DNA from: an uncultured Muribaculaceae bacterium
Lineage (GTDB): Bacteria; Bacillota_I; Bacilli_A; RF39; UBA660
DNA: 64,000 nt
NCBI GenBank assembly: GCA_964629735.1
Contig: CAZVQX010000003.1
Span: forward strand, 6,387 to 70,386
Direction of reading: 5' to 3'
Under the pieces are notes generated by a model, which saw only the letters and a list, made by a program, of their open reading frames with translations, searched no databases and was not told the DNA's origin. This document shows positions 6,984 through 56,435 of this stretch, one piece after another (within the stretch, counting starts at the first letter, position 1; the number at the start of each line of letters is the position of its first letter). The position numbers and the translations under genes are program-made.

Positions 6984-7038
6984 TATAAGGGGTAACTCGA
7001 TTTTGATAAAAAAACTAAAAAAATGTTTGCTTTTCTGT

Positions 7039-7067
7039 TTGACTTTTACAAAAAAAACATCTATAAT
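7039..7067 (+). promoter_or_regulatory. SigA-type promoter of nrdDG
   Basis: TTGACT-N17-TATAAT. Confidence 0.6.
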
Positions 7068-7087
7068 GAATTTATAATTATAGATGT
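7057..7087 (+). promoter_or_regulatory. 31-bp palindrome overlapping the nrdD -10 (candidate NrdR operator)
   Basis: ACATCTATAAT-gaatttata-ATTATAGATGT, perfect 11-bp arms. Confidence 0.4.
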
Positions 7088-7100
7088 GGAGGATGTTAAA

Positions 7101-9479
7101 ATGGTGGTAGTAGATGATAAGACAATTAATTTAAGTGTTATTAAAAGAAATGGGAGAAGAGTCAATTTTGATGGTTCTAAAATTGCTATAGCTATAAAAA
7201 AAGGTTTTGATAGTGTTATTGGTAATGATGAAGATAATGATCATACTAATAAATATAGTATGGTTGATGTTGATAAAGTTTATTCGGGAGTTATTAAAAA
7301 AATAGAAAAGGAATACGTTAATGATACTAGAATTAAAATTGAGGAAATTCAAGATTTAATTGAAGAAGAATTGAAAAATAAAGGTTATGATGATGTTTAC
7401 CGTTCATTTTCAGAATATAGAATTAGGCGTGCACAGTCACGTGAAATGTTTTTTGATCATAAAAAACAGCACAAGTTTTTAAAAGTTATAGAAAGTCTAG
7501 GCTTAAAATCATCTGTAGAAGATGATACGAAACGTGAAAATGCCAATGTTAATGGTGATACAGCAATGGGAACCATGCTTCAATATGGTGGTACAATTTC
7601 TAAAGAGTTTGCCAAATCGTATTTGTTAAAAAATAAATTTGTTGATGCTCATGAAGATGGTGATATTCATATTCATGATTTAGATTTTTTGCCGATGGGA
7701 ACAACAACTTGTACCCAAATAGATTTAAATAAATTATTTAAAGATGGTTTTTCAACTGGCCATGGTTTCTTAAGGGAACCAAATGATATCATGTCATATG
7801 GTGCCTTAGCGGCAATTGCAATTCAATCAAATCAAAATGATCAACATGGTGGCCAAAGTATTCCAGCATTTGATTATTATATGGCACCAGGTGTTGTAAA
7901 AACATTTAAAAAGCAATTTAAGCAATCTATTTATGATTTATTAGAATTTACTGAGTTTAATAAATTTTTAAATATAGATAAATTAATGGATGAGATAGAT
8001 AAATTAAAAAGTATTGAATTTGATATAAATATTTTTGAAACGTATTTTGGTGAGACAAGTGCTGTTGAGAAAATTTTTAAGACATCATATGAAAAAGCTA
8101 TAGCTAAAACAAATAGAATTGTTTACCAAGCAATGGAGGCTTTTATTCACAATTTAAATACAATGCATTCAAGAGCAGGTGCTCAAGTTCCGTTTTCATC
8201 AATTAATTTTGGAACTGATATTTCACCAGAAGGGCGAATGGTTATTAAAAATTATTTACTTTCAGCAGAAGCTGGTTTGGGTAAAGGTGAAACTGCTATC
8301 TTTCCAATTTCAATTTTCAAAGTTAAAGAGGGGATTAATTACAATGAAGGAGATCCCAATTATGATTTATTAAAACTTGCTTGTAGAGTTTCGGCTAAAA
8401 GATTGTTCCCAAATTTCTCATTTATTGATGCACCATTCAACTTAGAATTTTATAAAGAAGGCGATTATAATACTGAGGTTGGTTATATGGGATGCCGTAC
8501 ACGTGTTTTAGCTAATGTTGTTGACCCTAATAAAGCAGTAACACCTGGTCGTGGCAATTTATCTTTTACATCTATCAATTTACCACGATTGGGAATTAAA
8601 CACGGTATTGTAAATAATGAAAAGGCTAATATGGAAGAATTTTATAAGGACTTAGAAGAAAAGATGGAATTAGTAAAAAATCAATTGTTAGACCGATTTG
8701 AATTACAATGTGATAAAAGAGTGTATAATTCACCTTTTGTTTTAGGGCAAGGTGTTTGGATTGATTCTGAAAAGTTAAAAAATACTGATAGATTAAGAAA
8801 AGTTTTAAAACATGGTAGTTTAAGCATTGGTTTTATTGGTCTTGCTGAATGTCTGACAGCTTTAATAGGAAAACATCATGGACAAAGTGAAGATGCACAA
8901 AAATTAGGACTTGAAATAATTGGTTTTATGAGGAAAAAAGTTGACGGTTTTGCAGAAAAACATAATCTAAACTTCACTTTATTAGCAACCCCGGCTGAAG
9001 GATTAAGTGGTAGATTTACAAGTATTGATCGCGCTATATATGGTAAGATTAAAGGAGTTACAGATAAAGAATATTACACTAATTCATTCCATATACCGGT
9101 TAACTTTAATATCTCAATTAGTAAAAAAATTAATTTAGAAGCACCTTATCATAGTTTTACTAATGCTGGTCATATAACATATATTGAATTAGATGGAGAT
9201 ACTACAAATAATGTTGAAGCATTTGAAAAAGTAGTACATTTAATGAAGGAAGCTGGAATAGGATATGGTGCAATTAATCATCCGGTTGATCGTGATCCTA
9301 TATGTGGATTTACAGGCGTAATTGGTGATCAATGTCCTGGGTGTGGTCGAACTGAAGATGATGGTGTTAAGTTTGATAGAATTAGAAGAATAACTGGCTA
9401 TTTAGTTGGAACGGTAGACCGTTTTAATAACAGTAAGAGAGCAGAAGAAAGAGATCGGGTTAAACATTATGAAAATTAG
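7101..9479 (+). CDS. nrdD: Anaerobic ribonucleoside-triphosphate reductase
   Basis: ATP-cone N-terminus, Zn-site cysteines CGFTGVIGDQCPGCG and C-terminal glycyl-radical motif RITGYLVG. Start moved to MVVVDDKT (RBS GGAGG). Confidence 0.95.
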   Translation: MVVVDDKTINLSVIKRNGRRVNFDGSKIAIAIKKGFDSVIGNDEDNDHTNKYSMVDVDKVYSGVIKKIEKEYVNDTRIKIEEIQDLIEEELKNKGYDDVYRSFSEYRIRRAQSREMFFDHKKQHKFLKVIESLGLKSSVEDDTKRENANVNGDTAMGTMLQYGGTISKEFAKSYLLKNKFVDAHEDGDIHIHDLDFLPMGTTTCTQIDLNKLFKDGFSTGHGFLREPNDIMSYGALAAIAIQSNQNDQHGGQSIPAFDYYMAPGVVKTFKKQFKQSIYDLLEFTEFNKFLNIDKLMDEIDKLKSIEFDINIFETYFGETSAVEKIFKTSYEKAIAKTNRIVYQAMEAFIHNLNTMHSRAGAQVPFSSINFGTDISPEGRMVIKNYLLSAEAGLGKGETAIFPISIFKVKEGINYNEGDPNYDLLKLACRVSAKRLFPNFSFIDAPFNLEFYKEGDYNTEVGYMGCRTRVLANVVDPNKAVTPGRGNLSFTSINLPRLGIKHGIVNNEKANMEEFYKDLEEKMELVKNQLLDRFELQCDKRVYNSPFVLGQGVWIDSEKLKNTDRLRKVLKHGSLSIGFIGLAECLTALIGKHHGQSEDAQKLGLEIIGFMRKKVDGFAEKHNLNFTLLATPAEGLSGRFTSIDRAIYGKIKGVTDKEYYTNSFHIPVNFNISISKKINLEAPYHSFTNAGHITYIELDGDTTNNVEAFEKVVHLMKEAGIGYGAINHPVDRDPICGFTGVIGDQCPGCGRTEDDGVKFDRIRRITGYLVGTVDRFNNSKRAEERDRVKHYEN

Positions 9480-10032
9480 ATTAGCCCGCCCTATTCAATC
9501 GGATAGTATTGTTGATGGTGAAGGGATAAGAACTGTGATTTGGACACAAGGTTGTTTACATAAATGTGCTGGTTGTCATAATCCGAGCACTCATAGCTTG
9601 GATGGCGGGTTTGAACAAGATATTGATGAATTAAAACATCAGCTACGTAATTTAAAAGCACAGGATGGTGTAACATTATCAGGTGGTGACCCATTCTTCC
9701 AACTAGAAGCTAGTTTAGAAATTGCTAAATATTGTCAAAGTATTAATTTAAATGTATGGTGCTATACAGGTTTTACATTTGAAAAATTAATGCAAATAGC
9801 CACTAAAAAGCCTAAAGTTATTGAATTTTTAGAAAATATTGATGTTTTAGTTGACGGACCATTTGAATTAGATAAAAGAAGTTTAGAGTGTCAATTTAGA
9901 GGTTCAAAAAATCAAAGAATTATAAATGTTCAAAAAAGTTTAGTTCAGAATAAAGTTGTTACAATTCAAAAATATAATAAACATAATCAGCATAACCACT
10001 TTTACAAACGCGAACGCCATATATATGTCTAA
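9469..10032 (+). CDS. nrdG: Anaerobic RNR-activating protein (radical SAM)
   Basis: CLHKCAGC (Cx3Cx2C) motif; overlaps the nrdD stop. Confidence 0.93.
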   Translation: MKIRLARPIQSDSIVDGEGIRTVIWTQGCLHKCAGCHNPSTHSLDGGFEQDIDELKHQLRNLKAQDGVTLSGGDPFFQLEASLEIAKYCQSINLNVWCYTGFTFEKLMQIATKKPKVIEFLENIDVLVDGPFELDKRSLECQFRGSKNQRIINVQKSLVQNKVVTIQKYNKHNQHNHFYKRERHIYV

Positions 10033-10100: not shown

Positions 10101-10991
10101 ATGATGAAAAGAAACCCTAATGCATTTACTTTAGTTGAATTACTGGCGGTTATAATTATATTAGGTATGCTTGCACTTGTTATAGTACCAGTTGTGGATA
10201 GAGTAAATGAAAGAGCACGTGAGGAGTTATACACTGTTCAAAAGGGTAATATTGTAGAGGCCGCTAAAAATTGGGGCGCAAAAAATTTTATGTTGTTACC
10301 TGATAAAGAAGGAGAAATTATTACAATTACGATAGGACAATTAAAGTTGAGTAGTTTTTTAGATAAGGATATTACTAATCCCCGAACTAAAAAAAAATTT
10401 CCTAATGATATGGAACTAACGATAACTCGTCGTGGTAATAATTATGATTATGAATTATTAGAAAATACAGGCACTGATGAGGGGGATATATATCAGGATT
10501 CGCCAGTAATTATATTAAATGGTTTAGCACATGAGATATCGGAAATACATTCAACCTATGTTGATAAAGGGATAATTGCTAAAGCACCAACTGGTTCACT
10601 TTTAGATAATTATACAACTGTAATTAAGTCAAATAATATAATTGTTGATAAAGTCGACACCACAAAATTTGTACAGTATAAAATTACTTATACTGTAGAA
10701 TTTGAAGGAAAAACAACAGCTGCAATTAGAACTGTTACCGTAAAGGATACAATTCCACCTATATTAAATATACCAGGGAATATTGAGTTAACAGTTGATG
10801 AAGTTGCAACTTTTGATCCAATGTTAGGTGTTAGTATGTCGGATAATAGTTTAAAAATACCTAGTGTTTCAGTTTCTGGAACGATAAGCAAAATAAAAGG
10901 TGATTATACTTTAACATATACGGCAACTGATGAAAGTGGAAATTCTACTACCAAATCGAGAATTATCCATGTTTATAATTCACCACAATAA
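10101..10991 (+). CDS. Prepilin-type N-terminal domain protein with C-terminal DUF5011-like Ig domain(s)
   Basis: N-terminus NAFTLVELLAVIIILGMLALV is a type IV pilin cleavage/methylation motif, but with Ala at -1 instead of Gly. C-terminal repeats such as ITYTVEFEGKTTAAIRTVTV and GDYTLTYTATDESGNSTTKSRIIHV are of the same type as in the 60824 protein. Confidence 0.7.
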   Translation: MMKRNPNAFTLVELLAVIIILGMLALVIVPVVDRVNERAREELYTVQKGNIVEAAKNWGAKNFMLLPDKEGEIITITIGQLKLSSFLDKDITNPRTKKKFPNDMELTITRRGNNYDYELLENTGTDEGDIYQDSPVIILNGLAHEISEIHSTYVDKGIIAKAPTGSLLDNYTTVIKSNNIIVDKVDTTKFVQYKITYTVEFEGKTTAAIRTVTVKDTIPPILNIPGNIELTVDEVATFDPMLGVSMSDNSLKIPSVSVSGTISKIKGDYTLTYTATDESGNSTTKSRIIHVYNSPQ

Positions 10992-17493: not shown

Positions 17494-18528
17494 ATGAAGC
17501 ATGAAATCGATTTAGAAAAATATAGTATAAGAACAGATTTAGCGCTTGAAGCAATTGAGCCTTTTCAGTCAGAAAGCGGTATTGAAAGTTCGTTTGAAAA
17601 AAAAGAAGATGTTACAATTACAACTGTTACATTAGATAAATTAGGTGGTAAAAAAATTAATAAAAAAGAAGGAACATATATAACAATCGAGTTTGATGAT
17701 GTAACTGATTATAATAACCAACAAAAAGTAATGCGAATTTTTAGTAGTAAATTAAAAGAAATGTTAACAAAATTTAAACTAGAAAAGGATAGTTTAATAT
17801 TAGTAATAGGTTTAGGTAATGAAAAATCAACCCCTGATTCTTTAGGACCGTTAGTTGTCAATAAAGTTATTGTCACAAATCATCTTTATACTTTAGAGGG
17901 ATTAGAATCGGGTTTTAGTAGAGTATGTGCAATGAGTCCAGGAGTGATGGGGACAACAGGAATGGAGACTAGTGATTTAATAGCTAGTATTATAAAAACA
18001 TCTTCGGCGGATTTGGTTTTGGTAATTGATGCGCTGGCTAGTCAGTCAATCGAACGATTAAATAAAACAATACAAATGACAGATACTGGTATTCACCCAG
18101 GAAGTGGAATTGGTAATTATCGTAAAGAAATAAGTTTAGAGGTTATGGGGGTCCCAGTTATTGCCATAGGTGTACCGACAGTAGTAGATGCAGTTACAAT
18201 TGTTAGTGATACTTTTAATTATATGCACAAACATTTCTCATACTCAAAAAATAATATTAACAATCCAATTAACAAATTAATTCCAATTACCAAAATTAAT
18301 TATTTAGAAAAAAGTTATGATATACAAATGCAAGATAAGGAAAAATTGTTAGGAATGGTGGGGAGTTTGAATGAGAATGAGGTAAAACAATTAGTATTTG
18401 AAGTTTTGACGCCGATAGGATATAACTTGATAGTGACACCTAAAGAGGTTGACTTTGTAATGCTAAAATTAAGCGAAATAATTGCAACTGGAATTAATGG
18501 AGCACTTCATACAAATGTAAAAAATTAA
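17494..18528 (+). CDS. gpr: Germination protease (SASP-degrading)
   Basis: N-terminus KYSIRTDLALEAIE matches GPR. Synteny rpsT/gpr/spoIIP as in Bacillus. Confidence 0.88.
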   Translation: MKHEIDLEKYSIRTDLALEAIEPFQSESGIESSFEKKEDVTITTVTLDKLGGKKINKKEGTYITIEFDDVTDYNNQQKVMRIFSSKLKEMLTKFKLEKDSLILVIGLGNEKSTPDSLGPLVVNKVIVTNHLYTLEGLESGFSRVCAMSPGVMGTTGMETSDLIASIIKTSSADLVLVIDALASQSIERLNKTIQMTDTGIHPGSGIGNYRKEISLEVMGVPVIAIGVPTVVDAVTIVSDTFNYMHKHFSYSKNNINNPINKLIPITKINYLEKSYDIQMQDKEKLLGMVGSLNENEVKQLVFEVLTPIGYNLIVTPKEVDFVMLKLSEIIATGINGALHTNVKN

Positions 18529-18623: not shown

Positions 18624-19604
18624 ATGAAAAAAAGATTTAGGTACAAAAAAAAGATGAATTTTTTAAAATATATAATATATGTTTTTATAATATATTTTTC
18701 ATATATGGTAATTACAAATTATAAAAATTATAATCTTGCTAATAATAATGCAGACTTTTTAAAAGCTATTATTAATAACTCTAACTATCATATGAAGTAT
18801 GAGAGAAAAAACCAAAAAATCATTACCACTTTTTTGAATTTTTTAAATAATTTTGATGTTAATAAACCATTAACTGTTTTTGAAAGGGGTTTTCTATTAA
18901 GTGCTCGCGGTGAAAATAATGTTGATAAAAAAAATTTTGATTTTAATATTGAGCAATTAAATCGGTATGCAAAAGTAGTCAATCAAAGCGATATAAAATC
19001 GCCCAAAGTATATATTTATAATTCTCATCAACATGAAACATATAGTGATAAAGGTTTTGAAGATTACAATATAAGTCCGAATGTTGTAATGGCTTCATAT
19101 TTATTAAAGGATAAATTAGATAAATTAAATATTCCAACTGTTGTTGAAGAGGCAAATTTAATTGAATTTATGAGAATAAATAATTGGGAACATGATGATA
19201 GTTATAAAGCTAGCCGCTTTTATATAATTGATGCATTAAGTAAATATCCTAATCTTGAATTAATAATTGATCTGCATCGTGACTCATTAACTAAAGAACA
19301 AGCAACTGTAGCTATAGATAATAAAAACTTTGCTAGAACTTTGTTTGTAGTAGGTACAAATCATCAAAAAGGCCAGGAAAATGTTGAATTTGCAAACAAA
19401 ATTAATGATATTTTCAGTAAAAAATACCCAACTTTAAGCCGTGGGGTTTACAAAAAACATATTCGAGAAATTTATAATCAAGATTTAAGTTCAAAAATGA
19501 TCTTATTAGAGGTTGGAGGGCAACATAGTACAATTGATGAGGTTTTAAATACAGTTGAAGCTGTATCATTAATAATAAAGGATTTGATTAATAATGAAAC
19601 CTAA
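18624..19604 (+). CDS. spoIIP: Stage II sporulation protein P
   Basis: N-terminal TM, SpoIIP core (IYNSHQHETY..DLHRDS..FVVGTNHQ). Confidence 0.8.
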   Translation: MKKRFRYKKKMNFLKYIIYVFIIYFSYMVITNYKNYNLANNNADFLKAIINNSNYHMKYERKNQKIITTFLNFLNNFDVNKPLTVFERGFLLSARGENNVDKKNFDFNIEQLNRYAKVVNQSDIKSPKVYIYNSHQHETYSDKGFEDYNISPNVVMASYLLKDKLDKLNIPTVVEEANLIEFMRINNWEHDDSYKASRFYIIDALSKYPNLELIIDLHRDSLTKEQATVAIDNKNFARTLFVVGTNHQKGQENVEFANKINDIFSKKYPTLSRGVYKKHIREIYNQDLSSKMILLEVGGQHSTIDEVLNTVEAVSLIIKDLINNET

Positions 19605-31081: not shown

Positions 31082-32186
31082 TTGGAATTCCATGAACTAA
31101 GAAATATTTATCATAATTATTTAATAAGAATTCAAGAGTTATGGAGGGCTCTTTGACTTAGATAACAAGAATGTTGAGTTAAAACAATTAGAAGAAAAGA
31201 TTAATCAACCTGATTTCTGGTTAGATAAAAGTAAGAGTGAAAAAATAATAAATAAATTTAATAATCTAAAAAAAACAATTAACTTAGTTTCGTCTTTAAA
31301 AGAAATAATTAATAACAATTATGAATTGGTTGAGCTTTTAAAAAATGAATATGATAACGAAATAAAAATAATGCTTGAGAGTGATATATTAAAAATTAAT
31401 AATAATCTAATTGAGATAGAAAATCTTTTATTACTAGATGGTCCATATGATAAATATGGTGCAATTTTTGAAATCCATTCAGGAGCAGGTGGGACTGAGG
31501 CTAATGATTGGGTGGCGATGTTGTATCGTATGTATGTGCGATATTTTGAGTCTAAAGGCTATGAAATTGAAATTTTAAATGAACAAAAAGGTGATGAGGC
31601 TGGCTTTAAGAATATTTCATTATTAGTAAGTGGTGAAAATGTTTATGGTTTTTTAAAAAATGAAGTTGGTGTACACCGATTAATTCGTATTTCTCCTTTT
31701 GATTCTAGTAAAAGACGTCATACTTCTTTTGCGTCTGTTGAAGTTCTCCCTTATTTTAATGAAACGATTAACGTTGAAATTAAAGATAGTGATTTAGTAA
31801 TTGATGTTTTTAGAAGTAGCGGTGCCGGTGGGCAATCGGTTAACACAACAGACAGTGCCGTTAGAATTACTCATTTACCAACCAAAATTACAGTAACATG
31901 CCAAAATGAGAGAAGTCAAATTCAAAACAAAGAACGAGCATTAGAAGTTTTGAAAAATAAATTATATAGTTTAGAAAAAGAAAAACAACAAAAAGAGTTA
32001 GATAATATTAAAGGTGGTATTGTTGCTATAAATTTTGGTTCTCAAATAAGGAGTTATATATTACACCCATATCAAATGGTTAAAGATCACCGTACTAATA
32101 CAGAAGTTAGTAATGCGTCAAAGGTATTAGATGGGGATATTGAAGTATTTATTCACGATAACTTAAAGCAAAGGAGTGGTAATTAG
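31082..32186 (+). CDS. prfB: Peptide chain release factor 2, join(31082..31153,31155..32186) with programmed +1 frameshift
   Basis: Frame 0 reads TTG-EFHELRNIYHNYLIRIQELWRAL followed by TGA. The internal SD GGAGGG sits upstream of CTT TGA C. The +1 frame continues DLDNKNVELKQLEEKINQPDFW...GAGGTEA..SPFDSS..GGQSVN. Confidence 0.85.
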
Positions 32187-43593: not shown

Positions 43594-43635
43594 ATGTGTA
43601 AACATTGTATAATAATATTAGAATGGAGGGGCTTT

Positions 43636-44901
43636 ATGGCGAGAGGTTTAAAGATACCAAAGCGCAAAAAAGATTCAATTACAGAAAAAATCAAAAAATA
43701 TGATAAACCAAAATATGTTTATATTCCCCTTATTTGTCAAAATGATACGAATATAACAGTTTTAGTAAAACAAGGTGATTATGTTTGTAAAGGAGATGTT
43801 ATTGCTAGAAGAAGAGGACATTTTAAAGTTCCTATTCATGCCAGTGTTAGTGGTAAAGTAATATCATTTGAAGAAAAATTATATATAACTGGGCAAGAAG
43901 TAAAATGTGTTGTTATTGAGAATGATTTTAAAGAACTTGTATCAACCAATTTTGAAGTTCCTAAACAAATTAATCATTATACGAAAGAAGAGTTTATAAA
44001 TATAATTAAAGATTCTGGGATTGTTGGTTTGGGCGGTGGTGGATTTCCAACATATGCTAAATATGAAACTAATGACAAAATTAATACATTAATTATTAAT
44101 GCCCTTGAATGTGAACCATATATAACTGCTGATTATATGTTGATTAAAGAAAAGTGCGAAGAAATATTAGAGGCAATAGACGCTGTTTTGAATATTAATG
44201 ATATTCCTGAAGCTATTATTGCTGTTAATAAAAAAAACACAGAAGTTATTGAAATTTTTAATACTTTTATTGGTACTTATATTAAAATTAAATTAGTCCC
44301 TGTCCCTAATATTTATCCAATGGGGTGGGAGAGATCATTAATAAAACAGGTGAAAGGTGTAACTTATAATAAAATACCGATTGAAAAGGGAATTGTTGTT
44401 AATAATGTTTCGACAATGTATGCGATATATGAAGCACTAAAATATGGTAAACCAATGATTGAACGAATTATGACAATTACTGGCGATATGATCAAAGAAC
44501 CACAAAATATTTTAATAAAGGTTGGAACACCGGTTAAAGAAATAATTAATTCAATTGGTGGTTATCAAGAGGGTGACGTAATTAGTCTTATTGCTGGCGG
44601 CCCCATGATGGGGGTTGCAGTTCCTTCGGATGAATTAATTACAAGTTCAAATTTGTTAGGAATTGTATTAATGTCATATGTAAGCGATGAACCGCCGACA
44701 GAATGTTTACGATGTGGTAAATGTGTTGAAGTATGTCCGGCTAAACTTTCTCCAGTTTTAATAATGGACAATTTTCAAGATAGTGACAAATTAACTGATC
44801 TTCGGCCTAAAAATTGTGTTGAATGTGGTCTCTGTTCGTATATTTGCCCAGCCAAAATAAGAGTTAGAGAATTTGTTATTCGCGCTAAAGAAAAGGTGTA
44901 A
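43636..44901 (+). CDS. rnfC: Rnf complex subunit C
   Basis: Two 4Fe-4S motifs (CLRCGKCVEVCP and CVECGLCSYICP). Start at MARGLK after RBS GGAGGGG. Confidence 0.9.
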   Translation: MARGLKIPKRKKDSITEKIKKYDKPKYVYIPLICQNDTNITVLVKQGDYVCKGDVIARRRGHFKVPIHASVSGKVISFEEKLYITGQEVKCVVIENDFKELVSTNFEVPKQINHYTKEEFINIIKDSGIVGLGGGGFPTYAKYETNDKINTLIINALECEPYITADYMLIKEKCEEILEAIDAVLNINDIPEAIIAVNKKNTEVIEIFNTFIGTYIKIKLVPVPNIYPMGWERSLIKQVKGVTYNKIPIEKGIVVNNVSTMYAIYEALKYGKPMIERIMTITGDMIKEPQNILIKVGTPVKEIINSIGGYQEGDVISLIAGGPMMGVAVPSDELITSSNLLGIVLMSYVSDEPPTECLRCGKCVEVCPAKLSPVLIMDNFQDSDKLTDLRPKNCVECGLCSYICPAKIRVREFVIRAKEKV

Positions 44902-44912
44902 AAAGGAGGCAT

Positions 44913-46346
44913 ATGATGAAAATTATGAAAGTTGAAGTAGGTCCTTATATAAAAGATAAAAATAATACTAATAAAATAATGAAACATTTACTAATCTCAT
45001 TATTACCTATTATTGTATTTAGTTTTATAAAAAATGGTGTTATTCCTTATAATAAAGGTTATATCAGTTTTTTTGAAATGTTTTATCCATTAATTTTTAT
45101 TATTACTGGTACAATTTCTACATTCTTAATTGAACTGTTGTATGCAAGATTTATTCTTTCTAAACAAAAAGCTCAATTAAAAAAATATATGATGTCATCT
45201 CACTCTATTTTTCCCGGACTTTTTCTTTCTTTGATTTTACCAATAAATACACCAATATTAGTTTTAATAATGGGCTCATTTATTGCCATTGTAGTTGGTA
45301 AAATGTTGTTTGGCGGATTTGGTAATAATGTATTTAATCCGGCTTTAATTGGATGTTTGTTTATATTATTAATATATGGTCCAATGATTGCTGGTCATGG
45401 TGGCTATTTAAATAAAATGGAAATTTCAACAACTAGTGCAACACCACTATCTAATATTTCATCAGTTGAAGGAATTGGTAGTTATGATAGTTTAGTAAAA
45501 CCGTATGGTAGTTTGTTAAATTTTGGGGTTGGAACAATCCCAGGTGCAATTGGTGAAACTAGTGCAATATTATGCTTAATTAGTTTAATATATCTTTTAA
45601 TTTTTCAAGTTATAAAATGGCCTATTCCAATAATTTATATTGGTACCGTTTTTGGAATGACTTATATGATTGGTAGCTTAAATGGATTATCGATTTGGTA
45701 TCCACTTTTTCAAGTTATGAGTGGTGGTTTGATGTTTGGGGCGGTTTTTATGGCAACCGATCCGGTAACAAGTCCTACAACTCCAATTGGTCAAATATTA
45801 TATGGCTTATTTTTAGGAATATTAACGGTGACAATAAGATATTTGACTTCATATCCAGAAGGCGTTTTAACTAGTATCTTAACTTTGAATATGTTTGTTT
45901 TTATTTTTGATAAGATTGGTTCAAAAGCTAGATTTAATTTTAATAAAGCAGTATTGCATTTTATTGTAGCATGGGTTTTAATTTTAGGCCTTAGTATATA
46001 TATCGGTAATAGTTATAAGAAAAATAATAATCAAAATGATAATAACTTTAAACTTGTATCGGTTGATGAAATAAATAAACAAACAGTATATGTTGTGCAA
46101 CAAAAAGCTTTTAGTGGTAATATTGAGGCTAGAATAATTTTTGAAAATAATAATATTCAAAGTATTGATATTATAAATGTTAATGATGATTATTATCCCA
46201 AAATTGCAAAAGTTAATTTTATAGATATTTTACTTAATAATCAAAAAGAAATTGAAGACGTTGATACCGTTAGTGGTGCTACAATTACATCGTCAGCTAT
46301 TAAAAATATGATCATTAATACAATGAGAGAACACGGAGTGCGATAA
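44913..46346 (+). CDS. rnfD: RnfD fused to an RnfG-like FMN-binding domain
   Basis: RnfD core with FMATDPVTSP. An extra TM is followed by VDTVSGATITSSAI, the FMN_bind covalent-flavin motif of RnfG. 477 aa versus about 320 for RnfD alone. Confidence 0.85.
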   Translation: MMKIMKVEVGPYIKDKNNTNKIMKHLLISLLPIIVFSFIKNGVIPYNKGYISFFEMFYPLIFIITGTISTFLIELLYARFILSKQKAQLKKYMMSSHSIFPGLFLSLILPINTPILVLIMGSFIAIVVGKMLFGGFGNNVFNPALIGCLFILLIYGPMIAGHGGYLNKMEISTTSATPLSNISSVEGIGSYDSLVKPYGSLLNFGVGTIPGAIGETSAILCLISLIYLLIFQVIKWPIPIIYIGTVFGMTYMIGSLNGLSIWYPLFQVMSGGLMFGAVFMATDPVTSPTTPIGQILYGLFLGILTVTIRYLTSYPEGVLTSILTLNMFVFIFDKIGSKARFNFNKAVLHFIVAWVLILGLSIYIGNSYKKNNNQNDNNFKLVSVDEINKQTVYVVQQKAFSGNIEARIIFENNNIQSIDIINVNDDYYPKIAKVNFIDILLNNQKEIEDVDTVSGATITSSAIKNMIINTMREHGVR

Positions 46347-46347
46347 T

Positions 46348-46440
46348 ATGAAAAGTAAAATAAAAAGTATCTTAGTGCTTACTTTAACAGCTTTAATATG
46401 TGCAATAATAATATATTATGTGTTTAAAATAATTAGTTAG
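46348..46440 (+). CDS. Unannotated 30-aa single-TM micro-ORF between rnfD/G and rnfE
   Basis: MKSKIKSILVLTLTALICAIIIYYVFKIIS. RBS GGAG 9 nt upstream. Could be a remnant of the rnfG N-terminal anchor. Confidence 0.35.
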   Translation: MKSKIKSILVLTLTALICAIIIYYVFKIIS

Positions 46441-46452
46441 AGGGGAGTAAAA

Positions 46453-47088
46453 ATGAAGACAATAAAAAATGGAATAATAGATGAAAATCCAACCTTAGTT
46501 TTAATGTTAGGTTTATGTCCAACATTAGCGGTTACTAACAACTTTGAGAGTGCATATATTATGGGAATATGTGTTTTATTAGTTTTATTATTTTCTAACT
46601 TCACTGTTTCTATTATAAAAAAATTAATCCCAGAAAATGTTAGAATACCGGTTTACATAATAATAATTGCTACTTTTGTAACAAGTGTCGAAATGTTATT
46701 ACAAAAATATGCTCCACCAATTCATGAGATATTAGGTATATATTTACCACTCATTACTGTTAATTGTATTGTTTTGGGAAGAGCGATTGCTGTTGCATCA
46801 AAAGAAAAGATTGGAAAAAGTATATTAGATGCAATAGGTATTGGGTTAGGGTTTACCCTTTCATTATCAATGATTGGTTTAGTGCGAGAAGTCCTTGGTA
46901 ATAATACTATTACTTTAATGAATGGTATCAGCCCATTAACTGGATATAAGGCTGTTTATCAAATATTTCCTACTACTGATTATTTTCCAATTGATTTTTT
47001 TCTAAAACCAGCTGGTGCATTTTTAACCCTTGGTTTATTCCTAGCTTTATTTAATTTTATTAAAGAAAAAAGGGGTGAACGAAAATGA
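46453..47088 (+). CDS. rnfE: Rnf complex subunit E
   Basis: NPTLVLMLGLCPTLAVT N-terminus, six TMs. Confidence 0.9.
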   Translation: MKTIKNGIIDENPTLVLMLGLCPTLAVTNNFESAYIMGICVLLVLLFSNFTVSIIKKLIPENVRIPVYIIIIATFVTSVEMLLQKYAPPIHEILGIYLPLITVNCIVLGRAIAVASKEKIGKSILDAIGIGLGFTLSLSMIGLVREVLGNNTITLMNGISPLTGYKAVYQIFPTTDYFPIDFFLKPAGAFLTLGLFLALFNFIKEKRGERK

Positions 47089-47651
47089 ATTTATTTAATT
47101 TATTTATAACTAGTGTTTTAACTAATAATATTATTTTAACTAAATTTTTAGGTATTTGTCCTTTTATTGGCGTTTCTAAAAAAGAAGAAAGTGCGATTGG
47201 GATGGGGTTAGCAGTAACAACTGTTTTAGCTATATCAAGTATTATTAATTATTTAATTTATCATTATATTTTAGAACCAACGAATACGACCTATTTACGT
47301 ACCTTAATATTTATTTTAGTAATTGCCTCATTAACACAAATAATAGAAATAATTGTAAAAAGTAAATTTCCAAAAATTCATCAGGCCTTAGGTATATTTT
47401 TACCATTAATAGCTACTAATTGTGCTATTTTAGGAATTAATTTATTGAACATAAATAATAGTTATAACTTTTTAGAGATGATTACTTTTACATTAGGTAG
47501 TGGAATCGGCTTTGCGCTAGTAATCTATATATTTTCAACGATTCGTGAAAGATTGGAAAAAATAAATATTCCAAAATGTTTTAAAGGAACACCAATTGCA
47601 CTAATAACAGCCGCTATCATGGCGCTTGTATTTGGTAGGTATTTTGGCTAA
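47085..47651 (+). CDS. rnfA: Rnf complex subunit A
   Basis: GICPFIGVS motif, six TMs. Confidence 0.9.
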   Translation: MNLFNLFITSVLTNNIILTKFLGICPFIGVSKKEESAIGMGLAVTTVLAISSIINYLIYHYILEPTNTTYLRTLIFILVIASLTQIIEIIVKSKFPKIHQALGIFLPLIATNCAILGINLLNINNSYNFLEMITFTLGSGIGFALVIYIFSTIRERLEKINIPKCFKGTPIALITAAIMALVFGRYFG

Positions 47652-52480: not shown

Positions 52481-52512
52481 ACAGATGTTATATTACATCT
52501 GCTTTTTTATTA
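52481..52512. terminator. Bidirectional terminator
   Basis: CAGATGT..ACATCTG followed by T6. Confidence 0.75.
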
Positions 52513-53232
52513 ATTTAAATCAGGATAGAAGGTATTAATGAAGTGGTTATGTGCTTTAATTTCTAAATCTAAATCAAATTCTTTAAAGTTAAATTTTTTA
52601 TCTTTACTCAAAACTAAATCTTTAATAATATGTTTTAGAATATGAGGATTTCTAACTAAAAAAGGCCCGATTAAATAAGTTCCATAAAAATTGTTATAAT
52701 GAATTCCTTCGGCTTTTTCATCTAAATTACTACCAATACCTTTAATTACAGTAAAAATTGGTTCATTATTATTTTTAATAATTTTGCTTTGATTTTGAAA
52801 TCCAATAATTAATTCATTGAAATGTCTAGAACTAAAAACAGATTCATCAATTAATCTTTTATTTGCTGTAATTGAATAATAATCAAAAATTTCTAAAGCA
52901 TCATTTTTTTCTTCATTATCTAATATATATTTTCCAAAAAGTTCTATCGAGTTACCTGTTGCTAAAAAGAATTTATTGTTCATTATTTCTTGTTTTATTT
53001 CTTCTTTATAGCTTAATAAATGGTTGAGAGCAATTTTTTGGTTATGTTCTGTTCCAGAACCAATATATACAAAATCGTAATCATCAAAGTTTAATTCATC
53101 ACCTATTGTTAAAAGTTTAATATTTACTTTTATATCTTGATTTTCTAATTGATGCTTAAGTATTTTAATATTCCCACTTTCACCATATAGATTTAGCAAA
53201 TCATAATACAAATATGCAATTGTTATTTTCAT
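52510..53232 (-). CDS. gatD: GatD-like GATase3 protein paired with MurT; contains no cysteine
   Basis: LNLYGESGNI, FVYIGSGTEHNQ and GIHYNN blocks match the GatD/CobQ-type family. The product has zero Cys, with the nucleophile region reading LATGNSIELFG. Start at MKITIA after RBS AGAGGG. Confidence 0.7.
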   Translation of the reverse strand: MKITIAYLYYDLLNLYGESGNIKILKHQLENQDIKVNIKLLTIGDELNFDDYDFVYIGSGTEHNQKIALNHLLSYKEEIKQEIMNNKFFLATGNSIELFGKYILDNEEKNDALEIFDYYSITANKRLIDESVFSSRHFNELIIGFQNQSKIIKNNNEPIFTVIKGIGSNLDEKAEGIHYNNFYGTYLIGPFLVRNPHILKHIIKDLVLSKDKKFNFKEFDLDLEIKAHNHFINTFYPDLN

Positions 53233-53233
53233 T

Positions 53234-54550
53234 TTAAACACCCTCTATACTATTTTTAAAAATTTTTTCTAAATCAAAGTAAAAGACGCAATATACAAAT
53301 TCATTTCCGTGTTGTTTTATAGCATCTATAACAACGTTAGGATCGGTATATGTAATTATTTTTTCTTTGGGAATTTTACTGTTTTTTAATCGAACGGCAA
53401 TATCATATGCAAAATTACCAAGACATATAATATTTTCAACATTATCATCATTTAATAGTTCAAAATTAATATCCCATAACCACGATAAATCCTTTAAGTT
53501 GTAGCGACCACTTACATTTTTAAAGCCAATAACAACTGTTTTTTTATGATTTTGTTTACTTATGTATTCAAGTGATTGATTATATGATATTGGTGTTTCA
53601 TTTTTACTAAGGAGTAAAGTGCATTTTTTATCATCTATTATAAATGTGTCAAATCTTTTAATTTTTAATGATAAATTATTAATTGCTTTTCCGACTTTAT
53701 CTTTATCAACACCGTCGGTTATTGAAACCGCATAACTAGCACTTAAGTTATAAACATTATATAAGGCTGTGTTATTCATTTTAATAGTTATATCATCAAT
53801 TTTAAAATGATCGTTGTCAATCAATTCAGCTTCAAATTTAGTGATTGGTCTTTTAAAATCGCATTTAGAACATTTGTAATCTCCTAGATTACCGTAATGG
53901 AAATAATCAAATTTTAATTTATTATTACAAATTGGGCAGTAAGCCGTATCTAAATTAAAAATTTTGTTTTCTTTAATTGATAATGATGTTTCTTTTAAAC
54001 CATAATAGGTGACTAATCCCTTATGGTTTAAAGCAAATTTAACGACTGTTGGATCATCAGCATTTAAGATTAGATGAATATCATCAGTAATATATTCATT
54101 AATATCTTTCCAAACAATGTCAGGATGGCCATTCCTAGCTAGTTGATCACGTGATAAATTATTAATAATAAAGAAATTAGGCTTAATGTCTTGAATTGTT
54201 TTTTTTACATATCGCTCATCAACTTCTAAAACTAAAACATCACTTTTAATTTTTCCAAATATATTAGCATTATTTATTAAACAAGTTAATACACCAGTAT
54301 CTAAGTTTGAACCTTTATTATTAATTCCTACTTTATAACCTGACTGTTCATATATATTATTTAAAATACCGGCAATTGAAGTTTTACCAGTTGTTCCAGT
54401 AATAAAAATAGTTGTTTTAGGTAATTTAAAATGTTTAAAAATATTTTGATTTAATTTCAGCGCTATTTCGCCTGGAAAGGCAGAACCGCGACCCATTTTT
54501 TTTAATATAAAGCTAATTGTTTTAGCCACAATCATTGTTAAAATTTTCAT
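53234..54550 (-). CDS. murT: Lipid II isoglutaminyl synthase subunit MurT (Mur-ligase domain plus DUF1727)
   Basis: Mur ligase P-loop ITGTTGKTS and Cys4 ribbon CPICNN..CSKCDF. Confidence 0.85.
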   Translation of the reverse strand: MKILTMIVAKTISFILKKMGRGSAFPGEIALKLNQNIFKHFKLPKTTIFITGTTGKTSIAGILNNIYEQSGYKVGINNKGSNLDTGVLTCLINNANIFGKIKSDVLVLEVDERYVKKTIQDIKPNFFIINNLSRDQLARNGHPDIVWKDINEYITDDIHLILNADDPTVVKFALNHKGLVTYYGLKETSLSIKENKIFNLDTAYCPICNNKLKFDYFHYGNLGDYKCSKCDFKRPITKFEAELIDNDHFKIDDITIKMNNTALYNVYNLSASYAVSITDGVDKDKVGKAINNLSLKIKRFDTFIIDDKKCTLLLSKNETPISYNQSLEYISKQNHKKTVVIGFKNVSGRYNLKDLSWLWDINFELLNDDNVENIICLGNFAYDIAVRLKNSKIPKEKIITYTDPNVVIDAIKQHGNEFVYCVFYFDLEKIFKNSIEGV

Positions 54551-54691
54551 AAATAACCTCTTATCTAGTATTAAAAAATATTCTCTAACAATATATCTTA
54601 ACCATATAAATTATATCACAAATAAGCTGCAAAATAAATTAAGAAAAATAATTTTTTCTAGTTTTGTCGAAAATTAAAAAAACATTTATAA

Positions 54692-54955
54692 ATGTGTTAT
54701 AGTGATAATGGTGATGGTATGATAAATACAAAATATTCTAATTATATAATTTATTTTCATTTAAACAGTAATATTAATGTAGATAATTTAAATTTGTTGA
54801 GAGAAAAAATAAAATATATTGTTGATAATTATAATAATTATCAAATAAGAATAAATATATGTGAATGTGTTTATGTAGATTACAGTGCGTTACAATCATT
54901 TTTGGAAGATTATAATATAAATTATAAAAACAACTTAATTTTAATAAATAAATAG
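54692..54955 (+). CDS. Hypothetical small protein
   Basis: Complete ORF with no recognised family; start uncertain (GTG at 54692 or the internal ATG). Confidence 0.35.
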   Translation: MCYSDNGDGMINTKYSNYIIYFHLNSNINVDNLNLLREKIKYIVDNYNNYQIRINICECVYVDYSALQSFLEDYNINYKNNLILINK

Positions 54956-55010
54956 TAAATTGTAACTCATAAACGAGTTACTTTTTTAATAAGCTTAAAC
55001 AGGTGATAGT

Positions 55011-55250
55011 GTGGAAATAATAAATCAATTTCGCTCCTATCTATTGGAAGAAGAGTTCAAAATTAATATTTTTAAAAATAAGATTAATATAATAAACTAT
55101 AAAAATATAGTTCATTTTGACGTTAATAAAGTAATAGTAAATTATGATGAAGGAATGATTATAGTTCAGGGTGAGAATTTGGTTGTTTCCAAGTTATTAA
55201 ATGATGAAGTTTTAATAACAGGAATTATCAAAAAAATAGAACTGAGGTAA
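55011..55250 (+). CDS. yqfC: Sporulation protein YqfC (YabP family)
   Basis: 79 aa YabP-like beta protein; followed by a yqfD-like gene. Confidence 0.7.
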   Translation: MEIINQFRSYLLEEEFKINIFKNKINIINYKNIVHFDVNKVIVNYDEGMIIVQGENLVVSKLLNDEVLITGIIKKIELR

Positions 55251-55253
55251 TTT

Positions 55254-56435
55254 ATGAAAAATAATTTTATAAATAAATTACAACATAAACTTTTAATTCA
55301 TGTGAAAGGAAAAAATATTAATCGATTTATTAAGCGGTTATCTGATAATAAAATTGAATTGTTAAACATAAATATAATAAATAAAAACGAAGTAAATATT
55401 ATCGTTAAAGAAAAAGATTTTAATAAAATAAAGGATTTAAAAACTGTTTATGATATATCTATAATAGAAGTCCTTGGTATGCTTCAAGTAAAAAAAATAA
55501 TTAACCAAAATAAAATAATGTTAACTATTTTTGTATTGGGAATATTTTTATTAATATTTCTAACAAATATTGTTTTTGATGTAGAAGTAGTTCATACTAA
55601 TAGGGAACTTCGTGAATATCTTATTTATGAACTTTCTCAAGAAAATATAAAACCATTTCAATTCAAACTAAATTATCAACAACTTCAAAAAATAAAAGAA
55701 AAAATTATTAATGAAAATAAAGATCGGATTGAATGGTTAGAAATTGAAAATGTAGGGACTAAGTATATTGTAAGGGTTGAAGAAAGGCGGTTACCAACCC
55801 CGAAGATCAAACCTCAGAACCGTCATATTGTTTCAAAGAAAAGTGCTATTATAAAAAAAATTGAGGCTAAATCGGGCGAAGTTATTAGAGAGGTTAATGA
55901 TTATGTTAAACCGGGTGATATTATCATTTCTGGGCAAATAAAATTATACGATAACATAAAAAGTATTATTCCGGCTGAGGGGCAGGTATACGGTGAGGTT
56001 TGGTACGAGACAAAAGTTACATATCCATTATTTAAAAAAGAAGAAAAAGTTTTGCCTTCTAATAAAAAAGTGTTGGTTTTACAATTTTTAAATAAAAAAA
56101 TTGAGTTTTTTAATTTAAAGCCTTATAAAAATAAAAAAAGTAATGAGAAAATAATAATAAAAAGTAATTTATTACCATTGATATTATACATGGATAATCA
56201 ACAAGAAACTGAAATAGTTGAAGAAATAATTACATTTGATGAAGCAATATCTCGAGCTGTTGAGGTTGGACGAAGAAAAATAGAAGAAAAATTAAAGCGA
56301 GAAGAATATATAATTAGTCAAAAAAGTTTGAAAATTGACGCTAAAAGTAGTAAAATGATAGTAGATATATTCTTTGTTGTTTATGAAGATATAACCAATT
56401 ACCAAGAAATCAAAGAAGAAACAGAAGAATCTTAG
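55254..56435 (+). CDS. yqfD: Sporulation protein YqfD
   Basis: 393 aa with a central TM; in the Bacillus yqfC-yqfD...ybeY-dgkA-cdd-era-recO context. Confidence 0.7.
   Translation: MKNNFINKLQHKLLIHVKGKNINRFIKRLSDNKIELLNINIINKNEVNIIVKEKDFNKIKDLKTVYDISIIEVLGMLQVKKIINQNKIMLTIFVLGIFLLIFLTNIVFDVEVVHTNRELREYLIYELSQENIKPFQFKLNYQQLQKIKEKIINENKDRIEWLEIENVGTKYIVRVEERRLPTPKIKPQNRHIVSKKSAIIKKIEAKSGEVIREVNDYVKPGDIIISGQIKLYDNIKSIIPAEGQVYGEVWYETKVTYPLFKKEEKVLPSNKKVLVLQFLNKKIEFFNLKPYKNKKSNEKIIIKSNLLPLILYMDNQQETEIVEEIITFDEAISRAVEVGRRKIEEKLKREEYIISQKSLKIDAKSSKMIVDIFFVVYEDITNYQEIKEETEES

Follow-up and report, generated by a model that had tools for sequence, protein, structure and literature searches.

A MurT/GatD-like pair with a predicted pseudo-glutaminase subunit represents a conserved T-G-N sister subfamily in gut and rumen Firmicutes

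The window, which is the whole stretch of 64,000 nucleotides that was analysed, encodes a MurT-like ligase followed directly by a GatD-like protein in which both residues of the glutaminase dyad are replaced. The alignments support the assignment of the GatD-like protein as a pseudo-glutaminase in which hydrolysis of glutamine would no longer be possible. Gut and rumen Firmicutes contain a large sister subfamily of MurT/GatD to which the pair belongs and which is under family-wide purifying selection; this subfamily is designated here the T-G-N type, from the motif found in place of I-C-G-G. The favored reading, to which a probability of ~0.45 is attached on the basis of conserved residues and of analogy with characterized enzymes, is that the two proteins may form an ammonia-dependent complex for the amidation of lipid II in which GatD is obligatory but non-catalytic.

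Both genes are located on the minus strand, at the positions at which the sequence-only reading had placed them, and in the two-gene operon order of known MurT/GatD. The murT-like gene (53,234–54,550) specifies an ATP-dependent ligase of 438 amino acids in which a Mur ligase central domain is combined with a Cys4 ribbon and with MurT_C. The gatD-like gene (52,510–53,232) specifies a protein of 240 amino acids with a GATase_3 fold, as judged by Pfam, PDB and model matches. The start codon of the latter is the ATG at 53,232, which is preceded by GAGGG, and not the GTG at 53,241; translation from this ATG yields the protein described earlier, which is identical to P0001. The murT stop codon TAA (53,234–53,236) and the gatD-like ATG (53,230–53,232) are separated by a 1-nt spacer, a spacing that also is found in loci L001–L003, and the ribosome binding site of gatD-like, GAGGG (53,241–53,245, minus strand), was read within the 3′ end of murT. 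These positions therefore imply that murT and gatD-like are translationally coupled. The ribosome binding site read for the murT-like gene, AAGAGG (54,557–54,562, minus strand), is 6 nt ahead of the ATG. Further upstream, a pattern match alone detected a promoter-like extended −10 element, TGaTATAAT (54,610–54,618, minus strand), which is weak evidence because promoter-like sites are numerous in this AT-rich region (31 found in a consensus scan against 26 expected). A G+C-containing hairpin between gatD-like and the convergent pheT gene (52,482–52,501, no strand assigned) emerged from a terminator scan in which four terminator-like sites were found in the region compared to 0.4 expected from shuffled sequences, and is likely to be a bidirectional terminator. 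The GatD-like protein is identical in five independent assemblies that derive from different sequencing runs. A pseudogene or an assembly artefact was ruled out by these five assemblies, by the 32 columns that are invariant among the closest 31 homologues (52–67% identity), and by the confident structural model described below.

The catalytic positions of the GatD-like protein were assigned by HMMER alignment to solved GatD chains and by MAFFT, using as references the proteins of S. pyogenes (9sq9_C, E = 3.6e-35), S. aureus (5n9m/6gs2) and S. pneumoniae (6fqb_E). Matches to GatD entries in the PDB ranged from E = 1e-29 to 1e-35. Gly93 is at the position of Cys94 of S. aureus GatD, Asn94 is at that of Gly95, and Ile188 is at that of His189. 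The nucleophile elbow I-C-G-G is replaced by T-G-N-S (residues 92–95; 52,948–52,959, minus strand), in which the Gly93 codon is GGT (52,954–52,956, minus strand). The segment G-T-Y-L-I-G-P (residues 184–190; 52,663–52,683, minus strand) occupies the catalytic histidine region, with the Ile188 codon ATC at 52,669–52,671. The His189 position is Ile, Leu, Val or Phe in all 120 close homologues. The oxyanion glycines Gly60 and Gly95, as defined for S. aureus GatD (PMC5871853), are Ser and Asn, respectively. The sequence blocks by which the protein had been recognized earlier (LNLYGESGNI, YIGSGTE, GIHYNN, LATGNSIELFG and YLIGP) all are present, and comparison with the three solved proteins confirmed both the active-site positions and the replacement of the residues that occupy them. 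Because both dyad residues and both oxyanion glycines are replaced and there is no cysteine elsewhere that might take over, the protein is predicted to be a pseudo-glutaminase, as had been proposed originally.

The complete lack of cysteine, which also had been remarked on before, was borne out by a count of zero in the 240 residues. Cysteine accounts for 0.69% of the residues in the long open reading frames of the window, for which the probability of finding none in 240 residues is ~0.19; 10 of the 44 long open reading frames have none, and 89 of the 120 closest GatD-like homologues possess cysteine elsewhere in the protein. The zero count is not significant by itself, and the position-specific replacement is the non-chance signal. 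Misalignment that conceals the catalytic residues also was ruled out, as the protein contains no cysteine at all and HMMER, MAFFT and Foldseek each match it to GatD from end to end.

The GatD fold of the protein is intact in the AlphaFold model, which has a pLDDT of 95.7, includes the C-terminal helices, and superimposes on GatD structures in Foldseek with TM scores of 0.87–0.90. Pfam assigned GATase_3 (PF07685), and the NCBIfam GatD equivalog model NF045636 returned 131 bits against a cutoff of 400 bits. The architecture of the CobQ/CobB cobyric or cobyrinic acid amidotransferases, with an N-terminal CbiA/AAA_26 ATPase domain and catalytic Cys and His, was not found: true CobQ/CbiA proteins, as seen in locus L025, combine CbiA with GATase_3, whereas the window protein is a stand-alone GATase_3 of 240 amino acids that has neither a CbiA domain nor cysteine. 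The segment L-N-L-Y-G (residues 13–17; 53,182–53,196, minus strand) is retained and aligns with the Asn28-Thr29-Tyr30 plug of S. pneumoniae GatD and with Tyr17 of S. aureus. The role of this plug in the ammonia channel has been described for the S. pneumoniae protein (PMC6085368). Residues N14, L15, Y16 and G17 show no variation in alignment A1 and are conserved in canonical and T-G-N GatD alike. Canonical and T-G-N GatD share the N-L-Y-G plug, G59/G61, GP190–191 and N196, whereas C94, G95 and H189 change en bloc between the two. The shared plug and interface residues, together with the block switch, fit an interface and channel that are retained and hydrolysis that is lost.

The MurT-like protein contains the Pfam domains Mur_ligase_M (PF08245) and MurT_C (PF08353, DUF1727) and matches S. 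aureus MurT (7q8e_A) with E = 1.3e-48. The MurT equivalog model NF045635 of NCBIfam scored 216 bits against a cutoff of 800 bits. The P-loop GTTGKTS (residues 52–58; 54,377–54,397, minus strand) and the Cys4 zinc-ribbon insertion CPIC...CSKC (residues 205–230; 53,861–53,938, minus strand), both of which had been noted in the initial reading, are evident in the sequence. The two glycines and the lysine of the P-loop are invariant in 120 of 120 homologues. The first three cysteines of the ribbon are invariant, and the fourth is present in only 25 of the 120. The segment K-G-S-N (residues 79–82; 54,305–54,316, minus strand), the final Asn of which is conserved in all 120, is equivalent to the Gly83-Ala84-Asn85 loop that holds the acceptor carboxylate in S. 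pneumoniae, where the N85A enzyme is inactive (PMC6085368). Similarly, the loop SRDQLARNGH (residues 133–142; 54,125–54,154, minus strand) matches S. pneumoniae loop 135–143, which is situated at the interface with GatD and at the putative ammonia channel; its R, D, Q, R and G do not vary among the 120 homologues, and the D136A and R140A changes lower the activity of the S. pneumoniae enzyme (PMC6085368). Within KDLSW (residues 353–357; 53,480–53,494, minus strand), Asp354 corresponds to S. aureus MurT Asp349, as evidenced by the HMMER pairing of 'kdlsw' with 'rdtsw'. A residue count in the alignment identified Asp349 as the Asp of G-R-D-T-S-W, and the S. pneumoniae counterpart is Asp355. This aspartate, which faces the GatD site, is present in all 120 homologues and is not conserved in the Anaerovoracaceae-like subclade. 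The D-E site for Mg and the NADDP motif also are invariant in the 120 proteins. As the P-loop Lys, GxN Asn, Mg site, RDQxxR, NADDP and Asp349 equivalent are all invariant, the ligase half is predicted to be catalytically competent and selected for activity. The DNAAD motif is absent: the window protein has K-N-V-S-G-R-Y-N at this site, and the loop NVSGRYN (residues 345–351; 53,498–53,518, minus strand) is two residues longer in the alignment, with Ser, Arg and Tyr conserved in 120, 115 and 120 of 120 members of the clade, respectively.

The replacements extend throughout the T-G-N subfamily. T-G-N occupies the Cys site in all 120 closest GatD-like homologues, with the Gly and Asn invariant; among the best 150 representative clusters, formed at 50% identity, 134 have this motif. 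All 120 relatives of the Mogibacterium copy likewise possess Gly at the nucleophile position and invariant Gly and Asn. Carriers comprise uncultured Bacilli/'Mollicutes' genomes and Clostridia (Mogibacterium, Baileyella and Ruminococcus-like), spanning Bacilli, Anaerovoracaceae, Ruminococcus-like and Lachnospiraceae genomes. The source genomes are from rabbit, horse and human gut. Examples of carriers are GCA_942493215.1 (OW818670.1, 1.49 Mb), Mogibacterium timidum ATCC 33093 and Baileyella intestinalis. Relatives of the window protein itself are confined to metagenome-assembled genomes designated 'Bacilli / Mollicutes / Tenericutes bacterium'. The murT gene is directly upstream of gatD-like in every locus examined, and the genes adjoin or overlap in 13 of 13 genome loci. 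The gene contexts are housekeeping in nature, as expected for the principal MurT/GatD of the organism, and neither the Bacilli clade nor two Clostridia contexts showed a conserved neighborhood.

How such a pair might operate is suggested by experiments with the S. aureus enzyme. When the GatD subunit carried the C94G mutation, glutamine-dependent activity was lost and NH3-dependent amidation of lipid II at pH 8.5 was unaffected, whereas MurT alone was inactive with any donor (PMC3266927). Because the C94G complex is active with NH3, MurT is inactive alone, and the gate and interface residues are kept in the T-G-N family, the ammonia reading was judged to be the best. MurT would phosphorylate the α-carboxyl group of lipid II D-iso-Glu using ATP, as does canonical MurT, and the acyl-phosphate would be attacked by free ammonia instead of by ammonia derived from glutamine. 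The GatD-like protein would be an obligatory partner that stabilizes or activates the C-terminal domain of MurT and that forms a gated entry to the ammonia path. That the two proteins form a complex, that lipid II is the acceptor and that ammonia is the nucleophile are inferred. The gut habitats of T-G-N carriers are rich in ammonia. No prior description of an ammonia-dependent MurT or of a pseudo-glutaminase GatD was found in the literature searched. Several observations run against the ammonia reading. Among them are the replaced DNAAD motif of MurT and the two neighboring pairs of L018, both of which are taken up below. The activity of the S. aureus enzyme with NH3 was restricted to pH 8.5 and was not seen at pH 7.5 (PMC3266927). 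Moreover, the replacement residues G94, N95 and E98 are invariant over deep divergence, down to 33–39% identity. This invariance exceeds the needs of a passive scaffold and hints at a new ligand site.

The strongest of the alternatives, which is itself unlikely, is that the pair attaches an amine other than ammonia, either an amino acid or a diamine, to the D-Glu α-carboxyl of the peptidoglycan precursor, the former glutamine pocket of the GatD-like protein having been reshaped to bind or present the amine. The replacement of C-G-G-x-Q by an invariant G-N-x-x-E instead of by drift favors this proposal, as does the longer loop that stands in place of DNAAD and in which Ser, Arg and Tyr are invariant. 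An ATP-grasp amidoligase (PF14397) adjoins the pair in six loci, all confined to a Mogibacterium-like subclade, and a MurJ-like flippase is close by in two. In one genome (L018), two paralogous non-canonical pairs are adjacent to each other and are accompanied by an ATP-grasp ligase and an NlpC/P60 peptidase, an arrangement that suggests, and would be expected from, diversified specificities. To our knowledge, substituents of the D-Glu α-carboxyl for which no enzyme has been assigned include glycine in Micrococcus, those of type B cross-bridges, and cadaverine or putrescine in Negativicutes. However, retention of the N-L-Y-G plug is more in keeping with a small gas-like substrate than with an amino acid, the family occurs across far more taxa than do the rare chemotypes in which D-Glu is substituted, the ATP-grasp neighbor is absent from the window and from the Bacilli clade, and no link was found in the literature searched. 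A bolder version, which we regard as speculative and improbable, is that T-G-N complexes are not amidotransferases but the missing ligases of amino acids or diamines onto the lipid II D-Glu α-carboxyl, in which the G-N-x-x-E pocket and the MurT S-G-R-Y loop would constitute the amine site and ATP-grasp neighbors and duplicated pairs would extend the side chain in some Clostridia. A correlation with type B peptidoglycan also was considered and was not supported, as searches on MurT/GatD and the Mogibacterium wall yielded no usable literature match and the family is far broader than type B walls.

ATP-dependent amidation with ammonia might be directed instead at a different acceptor, such as another stem-peptide carboxyl group, for example that of meso-diaminopimelate, or another envelope polymer. 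The DNAAD motif is a proposed contact with the stem peptide, and its replacement means that recognition of the acceptor may differ; further, both equivalog scores are far below the cutoffs, and the two adjacent pairs in L018 could serve two carboxyl groups. Nevertheless, the acceptor-carboxylate Asn of GxN and the remainder of the MurT active site are invariant, the MurT-specific ribbon and MurT_C domain are present, and the closest solved relatives by far are MurT proteins (1e-48 compared to 1e-22 for the next Mur ligase family protein), which leaves a change of acceptor with a small probability. It is less probable still that the GatD-like protein continues to liberate ammonia from glutamine or another amide by a non-canonical apparatus, for example with Thr92 or Glu97. 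T93, N95 and E98 (S. aureus numbering) hardly vary, Arg128, which sequesters glutamine, is retained in 116 of 120 members of the window clade, and the MurT Asp349 equivalent is kept. However, the nucleophile-elbow position is Gly, and in class I amidotransferases the residue that precedes the elbow points away from the pocket. Furthermore, the S. aureus C94G, C94S, C94A and H189A proteins all are inactive with glutamine, Arg128 is not conserved in the Mogibacterium-type subclade, and no precedent was found. Finally, although the inspection covered only 64 kb of the genome, the notion that MurT partners a canonical GatD encoded elsewhere, with the local protein as a relic, is the most improbable of all, as tblastn searches of the window with S. 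aureus and S. pyogenes GatD and S. aureus MurT recovered only this operon, the strict coupling and adjacency of murT and gatD-like in all loci and a natural single-chain MurT-GatD fusion of the T-G-N type (P0236) argue against a remote partner, and a relic would not be as conserved as the 32 invariant columns across 31 homologues attest.

Staphylococci, pneumococci and mycobacteria cannot do without MurT/GatD, which is being explored as a drug target and the glutaminase dyad of which is treated as universally conserved. The T-G-N family departs from that view: in gut and rumen Firmicutes, including the cultured Mogibacterium and Baileyella, the glutaminase half systematically lacks its catalytic residues and nonetheless is highly conserved. 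If free ammonia is used, amidation of the wall would be tied directly to ammonia availability in the gut, the pair would be a natural case of an amidotransferase glutaminase subunit turned pseudoenzyme partner, and automatic annotation as 'glutamine-hydrolysing' or 'glutamine amidotransferase' would be wrong for hundreds of sequence clusters. If another nucleophile is used, the family could account for peptidoglycan modifications that lack assigned enzymes. Amidation of D-iso-Glu alters the recognition of peptidoglycan fragments by host NOD receptors, as outlined in PMC11132681, and the chemistry is therefore relevant to host–microbiota signalling.

Among known systems, the pair most resembles MurT/GatD of S. 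aureus, S. pneumoniae and S. pyogenes (PDB 6gs2, 6h5e, 6fqb and 9sq9; EC 6.3.5.13) in operon order, in the combination of a Mur ligase central domain, Cys-rich ribbon and MurT_C with a GATase_3 subunit that has an extra C-terminal helix, and in the ligase catalytic residues, RDQxxR interface loop, channel-plug Tyr and MurT Asp349 equivalent. It differs in possessing G, I, S and N at Cys94, His189, G60 and G95, respectively, and in the longer S-G-R-Y loop of MurT in place of DNAAD, with identity of about 30%. Carbamoyl phosphate synthetase I is an ammonia-dependent amidotransferase that keeps the class I glutaminase fold without the nucleophile. Human CPS1 (5dou_B) was a distant fold match of the GatD-like model, at rank 49 in Foldseek; as the synthetase and pathway are unrelated, the analogy is one of evolutionary route and not of homology of the system. 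The Cys-to-Gly replacement at the nucleophile is identical to that in S. aureus GatD_C94G (Munch et al., 2012; PMC3266927). The latter was made in the laboratory by a single substitution, retains His189 and the remaining pocket, and is active only at pH 8.5, whereas the natural family has a co-adapted T-G-N-x-x-E pocket, a hydrophobic residue at position 189 and an altered MurT loop. Archaeal 'MurT-like' ligases without any GatD partner have been described (Lupo et al., 2025; PMC11915815) and, like the pair predicted here, represent a MurT-family lineage that gave up glutamine hydrolysis. In contrast to the archaeal ligases, for which the gatD gene is absent, the gatD-like gene here is kept, conserved and coupled to murT.

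The 240-aa GatD-like protein (52510-53232, minus strand) contains no cysteine, as the sequence-only reading had claimed and a residue count confirmed. The protein aligned end to end with solved GatD from S. pyogenes (9sq9_C, E = 3.6e-35), S. aureus (5n9m and 6gs2, E about 3e-30) and S. pneumoniae (6fqb_E, E = 3.8e-29). Active-site positions were read from this alignment and a MAFFT alignment. The nucleophile Cys94 of S. aureus GatD corresponds to Gly93, the catalytic His189 to Ile188, and the oxyanion hole residues Gly60 and Gly95 to Ser and Asn94, respectively. The prediction of a pseudo-glutaminase in the same reading is thereby supported, as all four positions are replaced. The lack of cysteine by itself is not significant: the residue comprises 0.69% of the long ORFs in the window, 10 of 44 of which have none, and the probability of none in 240 aa at this rate is about 0.19. 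Instead, the signal is the position-specific substitution. An AlphaFold model built with the family alignment as input (pLDDT 95.7, pTM 0.92) matched GatD structures best (TM 0.87-0.90, rmsd about 2 Å), which indicates that the predicted fold is intact and the chemistry alone is gone.

The gene is the downstream member of a minus-strand pair of ORFs in overlapping frames flanked by pheT and the yqfC/yqfD sporulation pair. The upstream gene encodes a 438-aa MurT-like protein (53234-54550; Pfam Mur_ligase_M and MurT_C), and the GatD-like product matches GATase_3. As listed, the ORF for the latter begins at GTG 53241 within murT. The sequence reads GAGGG, the murT stop codon TAA (53234-53236), a single base, and then ATG at 53232; as this ATG behind GAGGG is the start, the product is 240 aa, and is identical to a database protein (P0001). 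Upstream of murT are a ribosome-binding site, AAGAGG, and the sequence TGaTATAAT, which resembles an extended -10 element. Between the operon and the convergent pheT lies a hairpin (52482-52501). Divergent from the operon (54692-56435) are an 87-aa ORF to which no family was assigned, yqfC-like (79 aa), yqfD (393 aa; PF06898 in identical loci) and VanZ-like genes.

The window (G+C about 27%) also carries genes for the GPR spore protease (17494-18528), a SpoIIP-like protein (18624-19604) and an anaerobic ribonucleotide reductase, as well as RnfC-, RnfD/G-, RnfE- and RnfA-like genes (43594-47651). The Rnf and, except for yqfD and VanZ, sporulation assignments were made by eye from translations. 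The Rnf-type genes indicate anaerobic energy metabolism. Together these genes mark the host as a walled, spore-forming anaerobic Firmicute, the spore genes doing so despite the 'Mollicutes/Tenericutes' labels of relatives. Directly after nrdD/nrdG (7023-10032) lies a gene for a 296-aa protein (10101-10991) whose N-terminus (FTLVELLAVIIILG), by eye, resembles that of a type IV prepilin and whose C-terminal region resembles a repeated surface domain. The prfB gene for release factor 2 (31100-32186) has the classical site of a known phenomenon, programmed +1 frameshifting, with GGAGGG followed by CTT TGA C (31151-31157), beyond which the shifted frame runs into a 286-aa ORF listed from 31326.

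The Gly-for-Cys protein is one of a family and not an accident, judging by its homologs. Each of the 120 closest (52-67% identity; genomes labeled Bacilli, Mollicutes or Tenericutes bacterium) has T-G-N-[S/A] in place of I-C-G-G, hence T-G-N type, and I, L, V or F at the His189 position; 89 have cysteine at other sites. A scan of species-representative genomes yielded 13 GatD-like loci, including Mogibacterium timidum ATCC 33093, Baileyella intestinalis and a Clostridia metagenome-assembled genome (33-39% identity), all without cysteine at the nucleophile position. Among 120 relatives of the Mogibacterium copy, Gly and Asn at 94/95 are universal and Glu98 is present in 119. Searching 1.84 billion representative proteins with a profile gave 373 matches at E<=1e-30. 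When the 150 top-scoring clusters (50% identity) were typed, 134 were T-G-N and five canonical Cys/His, the latter solely below about 170 bits. Named carriers include Candidatus Pseudoruminococcus/Ruminococcus sp. and Clostridiales, Peptostreptococcaceae and Lachnospiraceae genomes. Seven canonical sequences formed an exclusive clade in a neighbor-joining tree, which is consistent with one ancient split between the types, although canonical sampling was thin. A few profile-search clusters have other degenerate forms. P0268 retains His but carries Ser as the nucleophile-position residue; P0255 has G-G-G, with Gln at the His position, and P0250 has S-S, with Leu there. Independent losses could account for these forms, or a variant with a Ser nucleophile. 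Public labels of T-G-N members are 'hypothetical protein', 'glutamine amidotransferase' or 'CobQ-like glutamine amidotransferase family enzyme'.

Asp12, Leu16-Tyr17, Gly21-Asn22, Asp54, Gly59, Gly61, Arg128, Asn148, Gly190-Pro191 and Asn196 are conserved both in the seven canonical sequences and in the 134 T-G-N representatives compared with them. The plug Tyr of the S. pneumoniae GatD ammonia channel falls within Leu16-Tyr17 (PMC6085368). Switched positions are Cys94 to Gly, Gly95 to Asn, Phe57 to Tyr and His189 to a hydrophobic residue. The MurT-contacting and channel-gating parts are preserved, and the hydrolytic machinery is replaced as a block. The glutamine-sequestering Arg128 is kept in 116 of 120 members of the window clade and is not conserved in the Mogibacterium-type subclade.

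The MurT-like gene abuts or overlaps the GatD-like start in all 13 genome loci and in all further contexts fetched, and in P0236 (793 aa), of T-G-N type, MurT and GatD are fused into one chain. A second fusion, P0240 (726 aa), is canonical Cys/His, and P0241 resembles a fragment of one. In 120 homologs of the window MurT, the P-loop G-x-x-G-K, the acceptor-carboxylate Asn of G-S-N (S. pneumoniae Asn85), the magnesium site E-x-D-E, the interface/channel loop R-D-Q-x-x-R (S. pneumoniae Asp136 and Arg140) and N-A-D-D-P are invariant or nearly so; the functional weight of these residues has been described (PMC6085368, PMC6113224). The DNAAD motif gives way to x-x-[I/V]-S-G-R-Y-[D/N], which adds two residues and in which Ser, Arg and Tyr hardly vary. 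Loss of S. aureus MurT Asp349, a member of the proposed triad, was ruled out: by residue counting in the alignment it is the Asp of G-R-D-T-S-W and equates to Asp354 (K-D-L-S-W) of the window protein, retained in 120/120 homologs. In the Mogibacterium-like subclade, the replacement loop is acidic and the equivalent Asp is not conserved. All four zinc-ribbon cysteines are present in the window MurT; among homologs P0315-P0433 the fourth is kept in 25 of 120 and is Asn in 63, such that the ribbon may lack bound zinc in most of the clade.

In S. aureus, GatD_C94G, which bears the same Cys94-to-Gly substitution as the window protein, abolished glutamine-dependent lipid II amidation, whereas NH3-dependent amidation by its complex at pH 8.5 was unaffected and MurT without GatD was inactive whatever the nitrogen donor (PMC3266927). 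Thus, MurT using free ammonia would still require GatD, which would explain why strong selection retains a dead glutaminase and its coupling to MurT. Apart from loss of the dyad, every step of the mechanism is inferred: the GatD-like protein would be a non-hydrolyzing, obligatory subunit of MurT, and the complex would amidate D-iso-Glu of lipid II with free ammonia. A probability of roughly 0.45 is assigned to this pseudoenzyme reading. The carriers inhabit guts, which are ammonia-rich and fit ammonia dependence. Confidence is lowered by the G-N-x-x-E replacement motif, whose invariance over very deep divergence exceeds scaffold needs, and by the changed stem-peptide-facing DNAAD loop. Confidence is lowered further by neighboring genes in the Mogibacterium-like subclade. 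There, six loci have a 'sugar-transfer associated ATP-grasp' amidoligase gene (PF14397, with E-values as low as 1e-52) next to or near the pair (L014:9273-10280, L015:7524-8558, L016:8473-9480, L017:10880-11887, L018:11540-12541 and L024:7485-8450); this gene is absent from the window and the Bacilli clade. A MurJ/Polysacc_synt-type flippase is nearby in L016 and L017. L018 (8622-14756), from a horse-faeces Clostridia metagenome-assembled genome, has two non-canonical pairs 2 kb apart, one T-G-N and one T-S-N, both without the catalytic His, with NlpC/P60 peptidase and PF14397 genes between them. The motif invariance, loop change, ATP-grasp neighbors, flippase and paired copies lend some probability, though a lower one, to another amine nucleophile and slightly less to another acceptor carboxyl. 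A cryptic glutaminase is unlikely. So is a canonical GatD encoded remotely; the search of the 64-kb window found no second gatD.

Full-text literature searches returned no description of a Cys-less GatD, a natural ammonia-dependent MurT or such MurT/GatD paralogs, and the sole 'MurT-like' lineage discussed is archaeal and altogether lacks GatD (PMC11915815). The finding would surprise the peptidoglycan amidation field and is open to direct test by existing lipid II assays, although the most likely outcome, ammonia in place of glutamine, is an incremental mechanistic change. The pair scored well below the curated equivalog cutoffs (GatD 131 versus 400 bits; MurT 216 versus 800 bits). The T-G-N pair is clearly homologous to MurT/GatD and is taken to work alike, but differs from the glutamine-hydrolyzing enzymes in lacking the catalytic Cys and His, both oxyanion glycines and the DNAAD motif; on these grounds and on the scores it is filed as a sister variant of MurT/GatD and not a member.
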